Source: Polyangia bacterium (GTDB lineage: Bacteria; Myxococcota_A; Polyangia; Palsa-1104; SHYY01). Taken from it: a DNA stretch of 64,000 nt. The position numbers and the translations under genes are program-made. The notes below the pieces were generated by a model. That model ran no database searches and was not told where the DNA came from. It saw nothing but the letters and a program-made list of their open reading frames with translations. Where the stretch lies: contig DATAGU010000095.1 of NCBI GenBank assembly GCA_036263495.1, forward strand, positions 1,223-65,222. Direction: 5' to 3'. Below, piece after piece: positions 32,110 through 34,254 of this stretch; position 1 is the stretch's first letter; every line of letters begins with the position of its first letter.

Positions 32110-32328
32110 TCAGGGGCCGTCTCCGGCCGGCCGCAGCACGGCCACGGTCGCCCCCCAGCCGCCCATCGATTCGTCTGCCGGACGAAAGGACACCACCTGC
32201 GGGTGACGGGCGAGGGCGCCTTGCACGATGTTGCGGAGCGTCCCCGTGCCCTTGCCGTGGATGATGCGCACCTCGAGGATGCCGCGCGCCCGGCATTCGT
32301 CGAGGTAGTCGGCGACGAGCGACTTCAC
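32110..32328 (-). CDS. Smr (MutS2-related nuclease) domain ORF; the frame is open upstream to the TGA at 32443-32445 and has no in-frame ATG/GTG/TTG
   Basis: The sequence [75 protein letters not shown] fits the Smr consensus (DLHG...IIHGKGTG...GGxGAT). The listed GTG start at 32328 would remove the conserved LDLH block. The true start is therefore unresolved. Confidence 0.5.
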   Translation of the reverse strand: [72 protein letters not shown]

Positions 32329-32442
32329 CTCGCGCGGCGCGAAGGTGTGCAGGTCGAGGATGCCGTCGATGGGCAGCTCCGTCGCCTCGGCCGCGACGTC
32401 ATCCTCGTCCTCGTCGTCGTCTTCGGGGTCCAGGGCCCTCGC

Positions 32443-34254
32443 TCAGCCGACCACCGGCATCACCTTGTCGGCGTCCGGACACAGCGCCTCGATGCGCTCG
32501 TCGGGCTCCGCGGTGTCGAGCAGGTCCGCCTCGGCCTCGAGCTCCGGATCATCGGCCACCACCTCGGGCTCGATCGGCGGCGTGAACGTGACCACCGCGG
32601 CCTCGGTCGTGGCCGGCAGGCTCGGGGGACGCCGGGGCGGGCGCGGCCGGCCGATGCCGAACTCCCGGATCTTGTAGAGGATGGCCTTGTAACTGATGCC
32701 GAGCCGCTCGGCGGCCTCGCGCTTGTTGCCGCCGGTGTGGCCGAGCATGACCACGATGGCCTCCCGCTCCGCCGCGTGCGCGGCCTTGCGACCGACCTCC
32801 TTGAGATCGATGCGGAAGTCGCTCTCCTCCATGACCGCCTGCGCCTCGGCCGTGGCCGCGGCGAGCGCGCTCGCCATCGGCGTCGGGCTCCCCGGCCAGT
32901 GCGGCATCGTGCCATGAGGCAGGCCGGCGTGGGGCAAGGCGCCATGAGGCATGCCCGGATGCGGCATCGACGCGTGCTGCATCGACGCGTGCTGCATGGC
33001 CCCGGGCGGCATCGACGCGTGCTGCATGGCCCCGGGCGGCATGGAGCCCATCGCCCCCATCGGGGTCCCCGGGCCTCCCATCGGCGGGGGCGTCTGCGGC
33101 GCCACGCCCCGATCCTTCAGCTCCGAGAGCACGTAGCGCGGATCCCGCAGCACCATGATGCGGCGGACGAGGTTCTCGAGCTCGCGGATGTTGCCCGGCC
33201 AGTCATACGTGAGGAAGCGCGCCACCACGTGCGGCGGGATGTCCTCGCGCGTGCGGCCATACCGCTTGCCGTACTTGGCGACGAAGTGATCGATGAGCTG
33301 CGGGATGTCCTCGCGACGGTCGCGCAGCGGCGGGATCTGCAGGTGCACGACGTTCAGTCGGTAGTAGAGATCCTCGCGGAACGAGCCGTTCATGATCGCG
33401 CGCTCGAGGTCCCGGTTGGTGGCCACGATGACGCGTGCGTCCACCCGGATCTTGCGCTGCCCGCCCACGCGATAGAACTCGCCGTCCTGCAGCGCCTGCA
33501 GCAGCTTGGCCTGGAGCGACACCGGCATCTCGCCGATCTCGTCGAGGAACAAGGTGCCGCCGTCGGCCAGCTCGAACTGGCCCGGCTTGGTGCGGGCGGC
33601 GCCGGTGAAGGAGCCGCGCTCGTGGCCGAACAGCTCGGACTCGAGGAGCTCGCCCGGCAGCGCGGCGCAGTTGATCTTGACGAACACCCGCTCCCGCCGG
33701 GCCGAGCGGGCGTGGATCTCGCGCGCCACCACGTCCTTGCCCACGCCCGATTCGCCGGTGAGGAGCACCGGCACGTCGGCATCGGCGATGCGCTCGACGA
33801 GGTCGGCCACGCGCTGCATGGCCTCGCTCTGGCCGAGGTTCGTCGTGCCCGGTCGCTGCGGCGTGAGCTGGCGCGGACGGCCGCAGTCGCTCAGCACCCG
33901 CTCGAGGAGATCGCGCAGCTCGTCGCCGTCATAGGGCTTGGTGAGATAGTCCGTGGCGCCGAGCCGGATGGCGGTCATCACCGTGCCCGCCTTGTCGATG
34001 CCCGAGACCATGATCACCGGCGCCCGACCGCCCCGCGCGCGATAGCGCTTGAGGATCTCGAGGCCGTCGATGTCCGGCATCATGACGTCGAGCAGCACGG
34101 CGTCGGGGCCACCTTCGAGGGCCAAGCGCGCGAGGGCTTCCTCGCCACTGGCGGCGCCCTCGGCGCGATAGCCGAGGGTCTCCAGCACCAGCATCAGCTG
34201 TTCGCGGCCTTCGGGATCGTCATCGACGACCAATACAGTGTTGGGCTCACTCAT
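32443..34254 (-). CDS. Sigma-54-dependent transcriptional activator (REC + AAA+ + Met/Pro/His-rich insert + Fis HTH + acidic tail)
   Basis: The receiver is [10 protein letters not shown]...[11 protein letters not shown]. The AAA+ domain shows [14 protein letters not shown] and RLNV. The HTH is [26 protein letters not shown] ~70-aa [11 protein letters not shown]-type insert, visible as DNA tandem repeats at 32940-33030, lies between the AAA+ domain and the HTH. The start is trimmed to ATG 34254 (MSEPNTV). Confidence 0.85.

Follow-up and report, generated by a model that had tools for sequence, protein, structure and literature searches.

Among the described proteins closest to the Smr reading frame considered here is E. 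coli SmrB (YfcN), an mRNA endonuclease of collided ribosomes in which the Smr fold is preceded by an N-terminal extension of about 90 residues carrying a uS2-binding hook. In SmrB and in Cue2, the DxH and HGxG motifs serve catalysis and RNA binding, DLH being the catalytic motif of SmrB (PMC10897456). In MutS2, the Smr domain is C-terminal (T. thermophilus 2ZQE; B. subtilis 7QV3/8QPP) and accompanies MutS core, clamp, ATPase and KOW domains; the B. subtilis protein has DLR at the position of DLH (PMC10897456). The small stand-alone Smr/MutS-family proteins, of about 95-115 residues, are built of a short acidic disordered tail, ELPIDGxLDLH, HGKGTG and GGWGAT.

For the neighbouring gene, the reference is provided by response regulators of the NtrC, AtoC and ZraR type, which join a receiver domain (REC), an AAA+ domain and a Fis-type helix-turn-helix (HTH). 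For the boundary between the two genes, it is provided by genes that begin at near-cognate start codons and genes coupled to an upstream neighbor by termination and reinitiation. In E. coli, CUG initiates at 1-2 % of the level of AUG, that is, about 50-100 times more weakly (10.1101/063800).

Here, within a window of 64,000 nt (the whole stretch of DNA that was analysed), a sigma-54 enhancer-binding protein (bEBP) gene ends in a TGA behind which the same frame leads into an Smr domain. The initial annotation offered three explanations, namely a bEBP-Smr fusion split by a recent nonsense mutation or a sequencing error, programmed readthrough or a non-canonical start, and a decaying gene. The reading that we favor, and hold to be probable, is that these are two separate genes, that a deletion of about 70-90 nt took the spacer and ATG of the Smr gene, and that the Smr gene is now a severe hypomorph, barely maintained or starting to become a pseudogene.

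The two genes and the frame between them

The upstream gene product is, judged by its domains and motifs (Table 1), a complete NtrC-class bEBP with REC, an AAA+ domain bearing Walker A, Walker B and a GAFTGA-type loop, and a C-terminal Fis-type HTH. Pfam places Response_reg (PF00072) at residues 7-117 (E 9e-26), Sigma54_activat (PF00158) at 141-305 (E 3e-72), AAA_lid_14 at 311-374 and HTH_8 (PF02954) at 495-532 (E 1e-8). Although this architecture, with the loop in the form GSFTGA, is common to regulators of the NtrC, AtoC and ZraR type, the protein scores under every equivalog cut-off. It also differs from them in a long Met/Pro/His-rich repeat linker, for which Tandem Repeats Finder reports a period of 30 (2.1 copies, 100 % matches) as well as arrays of period 15, and in an acidic tail of about 70 residues, at the end of which the motif CPDxDKxxPV(V/I)G is conserved.

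Table 1. Features of the regulator and Smr genes, in window positions
Feature	Position	Strand	Remarks
NtrC-family sigma-54 enhancer-binding response regulator	32443..34254	minus	603 aa + TGA; identical to NCBI HEX2569549.1
Walker A GESGVGK	33756..33736	minus	regulator motif
GAFTGA-type loop, here GSFTGA	33615..33598	minus	regulator motif
Walker B LFLDEIG	33552..33532	minus	regulator motif
Tandem 15/30-nt repeats, Met/Pro/His-rich linker between AAA+ lid and HTH	32911..33044	minus	Tandem Repeats Finder and translation
TGA, ancestral stop of regulator	32445..32443	minus	after ...DKVMPVVG; same position in five lineages
Open frame behind TGA, small stand-alone Smr protein	32110..32442	minus	110 codons + TGA (32112..32110)
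Deletion junction GCGAGGGCC	32434..32442	minus	remnant of spacer, ATG and first codons; holds SD-like GAGG
CTG, NCBI start of 107-aa Smr/MutS family protein	32433..32431	minus	9 nt after TGA, 3 nt after GAGG
Acidic disordered N-terminal tail of Smr	32380..32430	minus	pLDDT <50 (AlphaFold model)
Smr domain PF01713	32131..32358	minus	Pfam 83.8 bits, full profile
DLH motif	32355..32347	minus	Smr domain
GTG, first canonical start in Smr frame	32328..32326	minus	72-aa truncated product
HGKG motif	32259..32248	minus	Smr domain
GGWGAT motif	32163..32146	minus	Smr domain
Weak terminator-like hairpin and T-rich tail, 3' of Smr stop	32048..32066	minus	consensus scan only

The description of the frame in the initial annotation holds. 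The frame stays open for 110 codons behind the regulator stop and enters the Smr domain, and the first 38 of these codons (32442..32329) contain no ATG, GTG or TTG. Translation table 11 also permits CTG, which is present as the fourth codon after the regulator stop. This is the start used by NCBI for HEX2569548.1 (P0123), a 107-residue protein that is CTG-initiated and otherwise identical to the window translation. The GTG farther on was chosen by the JGI gene caller in a nearly identical metagenome contig (L001; product P0006), and it does delete the LDLH block, as had been claimed, leaving profile positions 14-77 of PF01713 only. In an AlphaFold model this GTG is residue 39, within helix 1, and the product lacks strand 1 (residues 28-30) and DLH (residues 30-32). 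The 72-residue product, devoid of strand 1 and the catalytic DLH, should be inactive. An out-of-frame ATG near 32403, opening a short frame whose end overlaps the GTG at 32328 as GTGA, was judged a chance by-product of the sequence encoding the acidic tail, because the relatives lack that ATG.

The proposed Smr domain stands up to an HMM search, in which PF01713 matches residues 29-104 over its entire length (profile positions 1-77 of 77) at 83.8 bits against a cut-off of 25.7 (E 9e-24). H32, H62, G63, K64 and G65 are invariant or nearly so in the homologue alignment. The AlphaFold model (pLDDT 81.9) has the b-a-b-a-b-b topology of the Smr alpha/beta fold, and the Foldseek matches are led by 2ZQE (TM 0.90, rmsd 1.2 A), with YdaL and SmrB among the further matches; the entries named besides 2ZQE are 3QD7, 4OCH and 7QGR. 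Although the C-terminal domain of MutS2 is thus the best solved-structure match, also in sequence (E 3e-12), the window protein lacks the MutS core, clamp, ATPase and KOW domains, and the gene before it encodes a bEBP. The MutS2 model (TIGR01069) reaches 66.9 bits against a cut-off of 400, over profile positions 710-789 only. Whereas B. subtilis MutS2 has DLR, the window protein keeps the DLH that it has in common with SmrB, together with HGxG and the fold. It lacks the N-terminal extension and hook of SmrB, and the SmrB equivalog (NCBIfam NF003432) gives 40.9 bits against a cut-off of 128 with only the Smr part aligned. By analogy with SmrB, its activity is likely to be RNA cleavage at collided ribosomes.

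The layout of the small stand-alone proteins is reproduced in the window protein. Compared across Myxococcota and other phyla, it is 63-86 % identical to such proteins (for example P0001-P0003, P0037 and P0055, "Smr/MutS family protein"), the highest values (85-86 %) being to P0001-P0003, of 109-117 residues. Those listed among the 3638 homologues of the family stand alone, measure about 90-146 residues and carry a methionine and an acidic tail before ELPIDGxLDLH. Neither the length nor the sequence of that tail is constant from one homologue to another, and in one related lineage (L138) it is frameshifted and bypassed. The listed relatives begin at a canonical start, which is ATG in the five loci read as DNA, whereas in the window this start is lost and the frame abuts the upstream stop. 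A search of the 64,000 nt found no second Smr copy.

Related loci and the origin of the junction

Close relatives were found through exact-protein look-ups, and four related lineages (L002, L003, L136/L137 and L138) bear on the history of the junction. In all four, the regulator stops at one and the same residue (..P[VI][VI]G-stop), and behind the stop lie a spacer of 51-82 nt (70 nt in L002, 82 nt in L003, 51 nt in L136 and 66 nt in L138) and the ATG of a separate Smr gene of 90-117 codons. Across five lineages, the codon after the invariant last glycine is TGA in the window, L001, L002, L003 and L136 and TAA in L138. In the window and in L001, only 9 nt occupy the place of the spacer, and about 70-90 nt, comprising spacer, ATG and first few codons, are missing. 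The ancestral initiation codon and its upstream signals, as judged against the four lineages, are gone. Since the relatives stop at the same residue and the spacer and ATG have been lost in the window, the TGA is taken as the ancestral stop of the regulator.

From this comparison, the ancestral order would have been a bEBP gene, its stop, a spacer of 51-82 nt and, with an ATG of its own, a stand-alone Smr gene of about 110 codons. In the lineage of the window, a deletion probably took the spacer and any ribosome-binding site or promoter within it, together with the ATG and some five codons of the acidic tail, which is dispensable. In the DNA alignment, the relatives read TGA-(G/T)CGA(G/A)G, then the spacer, then C-ATG-AGG-G, so that GAGG is found at both end-points, which indicates a microhomology deletion. 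One copy of the short repeat would have lain just past the stop and the other in the ATGAGGG where Smr begins; the end-points can be placed only to within a few bases, and to reconcile all relatives one or two small additional tail indels are needed. The loss of spacer and start codon is a cause absent from the three alternatives of the initial annotation.

The arrangement in the relatives bears most heavily on the notion of an ancestral bEBP-Smr protein recently split by a nonsense mutation. What can be said for it is that the frame is shared and that the sequence is acidic on either side of the stop, which had been read as one continuous linker; each acidic stretch is, however, ancestral to its own protein. 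Instead of the contiguous REC-AAA-HTH-Smr protein that had been sought, the relatives have two genes, with the stop at the same residue, a spacer and a separate ATG, and this is the very outcome by which the initial annotation would have its fusion refuted. Moreover, the Smr family is overwhelmingly stand-alone, and deeper orthologues of the bEBP (L139, L140) are followed by other genes, none of them an Smr gene. An ancestral fusion is thus refuted by the orthologous loci.

An error of sequencing or assembly, behind which the true genome would have spacer and ATG like its relatives, is conceivable insofar as the window derives from a metagenome-assembled genome and mis-assembly can yield short deletions. 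Against this, the same TGA and junction recur in the separately assembled L001 (JGI metagenome 3300037473), which is 99.83 % identical over 5.4 kb, with 8 substitutions and 1 indel between the two. Since these differences lie elsewhere and the junction is identical, a one-off base-calling error is unlikely, although the two are independent assemblies of not necessarily independent populations, from samples that might be the same or related. The region is not repetitive, and the sequence at the junction is unique and flanked on either side by clean homology. We regard an artefact as extremely unlikely. A fusion split by a sequencing error finds no support in the arrangement of the relatives.

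The missing start is exceptional in the family. Of 126 family loci with the DxH motif, only the window and L001 lack a canonical start before it; the two others that were flagged are a MutS2-type locus with a stop three codons upstream and a locus at a contig edge. The adjacency of the two genes appears, from the loci compared, to be shallow and limited to the close clade. Among the Smr loci listed outside this clade (L004-L135, matches from Smr-protein scans of genome and metagenome contigs, all at 67 % identity or less), none has a bEBP directly upstream on the same strand; the sole bEBP match belongs to L026, where it is encoded on the opposite strand some 2.6 kb downstream. These scans also show that the Smr family is widespread. 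Relatives of 86-98 % identity were sought among the bEBP C-terminal hits and all hits were more distant; because no relative falls between these values, the deletion cannot be dated.

Other candidate signals in the relatives' spacers fell away on comparison. A sigma-54 promoter seen by eye in L002 (TGGCAG-N5-AGGCAT) is not conserved in L003, L136 and L138, and RNAalifold gave no consensus pairs for a conserved hairpin in the spacers.

A further question is whether the deletion, having aligned the two frames with a single stop between them, is on the way to a fusion. Some ribosomes might pass the TGA to give a REC-AAA-HTH-Smr protein, the in-frame deletion having been selected as the first step. 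The small Smr family lends itself to such a view, as public data contain its fusions to many unrelated domains (for example abhydrolase-Smr, PRAI-Smr and YdjM-Smr), so that the acidic tail can act as a linker. Nevertheless, the continuation of the regulator frame is most simply a one-in-three accident, and L136, which shows no sign of fusion, is also in frame over its 51-nt spacer. The TGA is the ancestral stop, conserved like the C-terminal motif that it follows, and TGA ends Smr itself, as well as the regulator in three of the four related lineages, which gives no sign of recoding. Programmed readthrough, as had been proposed, finds no support: there is no SECIS or readthrough-stimulating structure and no hairpin after the UGA (fold z-score -1.6 at the junction), and the arrangement occurs in one lineage. 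A query spanning the HTH, tail and Smr parts returned no protein combining PF00158 or PF02954 with PF01713 in its 120 best hits. The shallow adjacency also speaks against a nascent fusion, and it is not obvious what a DNA-bound activator would do with a nuclease or ribosome-collision domain; we consider such a fusion very unlikely.

Translation and fate of the Smr gene

With the deletion in place, regulator termination would remain at the ancestral TGA, and the Smr frame, intact and with no start codon of its own, would have to share a transcript with the regulator. A consensus scan found no terminator between the two genes. Full-length Smr protein could then arise if ribosomes terminate at the TGA and reinitiate at the near-cognate CTG 9 nt on, with the SD-like GAGG between. 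A start at this CTG is mechanistically possible, and the distance of 9 nt and the intervening GAGG are reminiscent of known near-cognate and coupled genes. The window arrangement differs from these in being a deletion by-product in a single lineage, in which use of the CTG is an inference. Since CUG initiates so weakly in E. coli, the gene would be a severe hypomorph, barely maintained or at the very start of pseudogenisation.

The same deletion is also compatible with an Smr gene that is fully functional and under selection, translated from the CTG through tight termination-reinitiation coupling, as the NCBI annotation has it. The frame is fully intact, with no frameshift or stop, DLH, HGKG and GGWGAT are all present, and the conservation of the protein equals that seen in relatives, so that full function is possible. 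For the Smr domain, comparison of the window with its relatives gives a dN/dS of 0.12-0.20, and comparison among the relatives 0.10-0.19; since the window gene resembles the others in this respect, the deletion is counted as a recent event. Ribosome-binding sites in the relatives look weak, so that little protein may be needed, and the N-terminal tail tolerates change, the start having moved to an internal ATG in L138.

On the other side, the CTG and GAGG are not newly evolved signals but were inherited, the one from an ancestral leucine codon (CTC or CTG in relatives) and the other from the microhomology. The 3 nt from GAGG to CTG are a short spacing, CUG is far weaker than AUG, and among the 126 family loci the start-less junction is confined to the window and L001. 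Between these near-identical strains, moreover, both Smr differences are nonsynonymous (2 nonsynonymous, 0 synonymous), whereas the bEBP shows 0 nonsynonymous and 3 synonymous changes, counts that are tiny and not significant. Of the lineage-specific Smr changes, 4 are nonsynonymous and 3 synonymous in the window, against 10 and 20 in the pooled relatives, too few for significance. These counts lean, as weak hints, to relaxed constraint, and a decaying gene or very young pseudogene, as the initial annotation had allowed, is plausible. A fully functional gene is thus possible but doubtful, and the severe hypomorph is preferred.

It is quite improbable that a gene fusion has here been caught in progress, the in-frame deletion being its first step to become fixed and low-level UGA readthrough already tethering Smr to the activator, or that obligatory reinitiation at the CTG couples Smr synthesis to translation of the regulator.

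Annotation, start-codon loss and the Smr family

The main use of the comparison is that a false lead is averted, as a seemingly undescribed sigma-54 activator-Smr nuclease resolves, in the favored reading, into two ordinary genes joined by a small deletion. Annotation pipelines diverge at this point, with a 72-residue GTG product from JGI that lacks the catalytic motif and a 107-residue CTG product from NCBI. The locus would also illustrate cleanly how a microhomology deletion can remove a start codon in a high-GC genome, in which damaged genes long retain open reading frames. Should the CTG really be in use, nature would here have made a gene depend on termination-reinitiation at a near-cognate codon, a case of modest interest for the field of translation initiation. 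Were a fusion indeed in progress, the small Smr family would be unusually prone to captures, as its many metagenome fusions to unrelated enzymes suggest.

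Regulator and the open frame behind it

The product of the regulator gene, identical to HEX2569549.1, carries a Walker A motif (GESGVGK), a Walker B motif (LFLDEIG), and a GAFTGA-type loop (GSFTGA) in addition to the domains listed in the table, and is an ordinary response regulator of the NtrC class of enhancer-binding proteins (bEBP). Compared with equivalog families it scores under every cut-off, leaving it a generic member of its class. Tandem repeats within the gene encode a Met/Pro/His-rich linker from the AAA+ lid to the HTH domain; the linkers of its orthologs differ, being Pro/Gln-rich, and the Met/His content might reflect metal binding or mere repeat expansion. 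Large bEBP complements are typical of myxobacteria, and the two sigma-54 enhancer-binding paralogs in the window (38-45 % identical) fit this pattern. The window also holds a REC-only gene.

Features of the window and of the orthologous junctions (window positions unless stated otherwise)
Feature	Position	Strand	Details
Regulator	34254 (ATG) to 32445..32443 (TGA)	-	603 codons
Response_reg	regulator residues 7-117		Pfam
Sigma54_activat	regulator residues 141-305		Pfam, E 3e-72
AAA_lid_14	regulator residues 311-374		Pfam
HTH_8	regulator residues 495-532		Pfam
Tandem repeats	32911..33044	- (coding, in regulator)	perfect 30-nt unit, 2.1 copies; imperfect 15-nt arrays, 66-79 % matches
Regulator paralog	9026..10495	-	
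Regulator paralog	46719..48047	-	
REC-only gene	16033..16386	+	
Lipoprotein-like ORF	30922..32025	+	31126..32025 by the gene caller of L001
REC gene	30509..30853	+	
L002 junction	spacer 70 nt		Smr start ATG AGG GAT CAG GAG CTC GAC CCC...
L003 junction	spacer 82 nt		Smr start ATG AGA GAT CCA GAT CTG CCC CCC...
L136 junction	spacer 51 nt		Smr start ATG ATG TCC TGC ATG AGG GGC CAG GAA CTC...
L138 junction	spacer 66 nt		ATG AGG GAT CAG, then 1-nt frameshift; called start an internal ATG just before ELPIDG

Past the regulator's TGA the same frame stays open for 110 codons, until a second TGA at 32112..32110, and the first 38 of these, up to the GTG at 32328, contain no ATG, GTG, or TTG. The complete Pfam Smr profile (PF01713) matches post-TGA residues 29-104 with 83.8 bits (cut-off 25.7); the initial annotation had described the TGA, the open frame, the absent starts, and the Smr domain accurately in every point. 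An AlphaFold model of the translation (22 homologs as input, pLDDT 81.9) aligns in structure with 2ZQE, the Smr domain of Thermus MutS2 (TM 0.90, rmsd 1.2 Å), as well as with YdaL and with SmrB, whose DLH residues are catalytic (PMC10897456). In this model residues 1-21 are disordered, strand 1 spans residues 28-30, and helix 1 residues 36-52. As the GTG is residue 39, a product initiated there would be without strand 1 and the DLH motif, bearing out the earlier expectation that this start deletes the conserved block; the 72-residue ORF it opens covers Smr profile positions 14-77 only.

Orthologous loci and the deletion

A search with the 110-residue translation returned 3638 homologs, the best 120 of which comprise an Smr domain alone in 72-146 residues, nearly all of them in about 90-135 (the 72-residue entry is the truncated call on L001, a near-identical JGI metagenome contig, 3300037473). 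These 120 begin with Met and a short variable acidic tail, followed by a nearly invariant ELPIDGxLDLH. On the contigs of the closest relatives among the matches listed (P0001-P0004, 85-86 % identity), an ortholog of the regulator lies upstream in each case (76-86 % identity). The regulator orthologs end at an identical position, with an invariant final glycine and the conserved motif C-x-x-x-[DE]-K-M-x-P-[VI]-I-G, and their stop codon is TGA in L002, L003, and L136 and TAA in L138, four loci from related lineages. The comparison shows the regulator of the window to terminate at its ancestral stop. That an ancestral bEBP-Smr fusion was split by a nonsense mutation, a proposal that drew on the apparent continuity of the acidic linker across the TGA, is effectively refuted, as the relatives share the regulator stop, followed by a spacer of 51-82 nt and an Smr ATG, and the flanking acidic stretches go back to two different proteins, both with an acidic terminus of their own. 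The contiguous protein that was to be sought in orthologs is represented in all four loci by separate genes.

The junction in the window reads TGA GCG AGG GCC CTG GAC CCC GAA GAC..., with only 9 nt from the stop to Leu-Asp-Pro-Glu, which in the DNA alignment falls at about codons 6-9 of Smr in the relatives. Set against their spacers, this remnant indicates that about 70-90 nt were lost in the window lineage, the figure varying with the relative compared. As aligned, the deletion took in the spacer together with the ATG and a few initial Smr codons, with end-points uncertain by a few bases and an extra small indel in the tail required to fit all relatives. The relatives carry GAGG both just past the regulator stop (TGAGCGAGG, TAAGCGAGG) and within the Smr start (CATGAGGG), so that the single copy left in the window is as expected of a microhomology-mediated deletion. 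The feature, though real, is nothing out of the ordinary: the Smr start was lost to a small, recent deletion, which left Smr in frame behind its neighbor's stop. A new fusion architecture is absent here, and the deletion and the two-gene status are held with high confidence; public annotation already treats regulator and Smr as separate genes.

The junction is the same in L001, which is 99.83 % identical to the window over 5.4 kb (8 substitutions and 1 indel), making a base-calling or assembly accident unlikely even though the source samples may be related; an assembly artifact is scarcely credible. As relatives at 86-98 % identity were not found among the matches listed, a precise date for the deletion is out of reach.

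Across these lineages the acidic tail is an indel hotspot. In L138 (1487-1535) it contains the frameshift, which the called 90-residue Smr bypasses, indicating that the tail is dispensable. A sigma-54-promoter-like motif in the L002 spacer just upstream of Smr (1358-1376, TGGCAG-N5-AGGCAT, with GG-N10-GC spacing) is probably due to chance, its GG not being kept in L138 and the motif missing from L003 and L136. In L003 and L138 the next gene past Smr is a convergent response regulator with a single domain, behind which comes a GAF/PAS histidine kinase; the L002 contig ends after the same convergent response regulator. The window and L001 have the additional lipoprotein-like ORF separating Smr from the REC gene, so that the 3' flank of Smr was rearranged too in this lineage.

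Family placement and genomic context

By profile, motifs, and fold the protein is a member of the Smr domain family. It is neither an equivalog of SmrB, scoring 40.9 bits where 128 are required and missing the N-terminal hook, nor a MutS2, of which only the last 80 profile positions match; its sequence places it among the widespread minimal stand-alone Smr proteins that keep DLH and HGxG. The probable role of the protein, drawn from analogy to SmrB, is that of a nuclease acting on RNA where ribosomes have collided (PMC10897456). The lack of a canonical start ahead of DxH is confined to the window and L001 among 126 family loci with a findable motif, two other flagged loci being explained otherwise (a MutS2-type locus with a stop 3 codons upstream; a contig edge). 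The start-less state is an exception and no habit of the family.

Among the Smr loci listed from two contig-collection scans, none has a bEBP directly upstream on the same strand, the one bEBP match, in L026, being encoded on the other strand and downstream. In two more distant regulator orthologs (L139, L140) the downstream genes are unrelated; L140 retains the upstream YtxH synteny. The regulator-Smr pairing is without meaning outside a narrow clade. A query spanning the junction (HTH, tail, W, Smr) matched regulators and Smr proteins apart, with no combined protein among the matches listed, and a functional readthrough fusion is very improbable.

Close homologs of the minimal Smr domain occur as fusions with a wide variety of unrelated domains, placed before or after it (P0131, P0132, P0149, P0170, P0187, P0195, P0205, P0216, P0221, P0222, P0227, P0229, P0233, P0238), in architectures that include alpha/beta-hydrolase-Smr, PRAI(TrpF)-Smr, YdjM-Smr, S-methyltransferase-Smr, Smr-Polyketide_cyc2, and Smr-LCM methyltransferase. 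Several recur across contigs and are therefore probably real. For a putative nuclease domain of ribosome collisions this is marked promiscuity, and it lends some color to a fusion caught in progress, or to obligatory CTG re-initiation, readings that are nonetheless given little credence.

Selection and present-day expression

For the Smr domain, pairwise dN/dS comes to 0.12-0.20 when the window is compared with its relatives and to 0.10-0.19 when these are compared with one another, which argues for normal purifying selection over most of the branch and for a lesion that is recent or a gene that still works. Where the window departs from L001, the two differences in Smr (32216, 32211) are nonsynonymous and the 3 in the regulator all synonymous; lineage-specific nonsynonymous to synonymous changes in Smr number 4:3 in the window and 10:20 in the pooled relatives. 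Together these hint at relaxed constraint, far from significantly.

A terminator-like element was not found between the two genes, so that the Smr frame must be co-transcribed with the regulator; a weak one is present past the end of Smr. RNA structure at the junction is not unusual (z = -1.6). A complete Smr domain would be reached only by near-cognate initiation or UGA readthrough, and the best start candidate would be the CTG at 32433, 9 nt past the regulator stop and 3 nt past GAGG. The ATC at 32370..32368, codon Ile25 in the frame after the TGA, has GGAG 6 nt ahead of it, a sequence that is nothing more than conserved ELPID coding. In Escherichia coli, initiation at CUG and at AUC reaches 1-2 % of that at AUG (10.1101/063800); a nearby terminating ribosome could aid initiation. 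A fully functional, CTG-coupled gene is a less likely alternative; the favored reading, held with moderate confidence, is a severe hypomorph, barely maintained or at the very onset of decay.

The one start-less ORF bears two annotations: 72 residues from the GTG in JGI (L001:4001-4219), a product in which the catalytic motif is missing, and 107 from the CTG, the start chosen by the NCBI pipeline (window 32110..32433), where HEX2569548.1 is identical to the frame from that codon on. Such divergent calls illustrate that annotation can hide the loss of a start codon.
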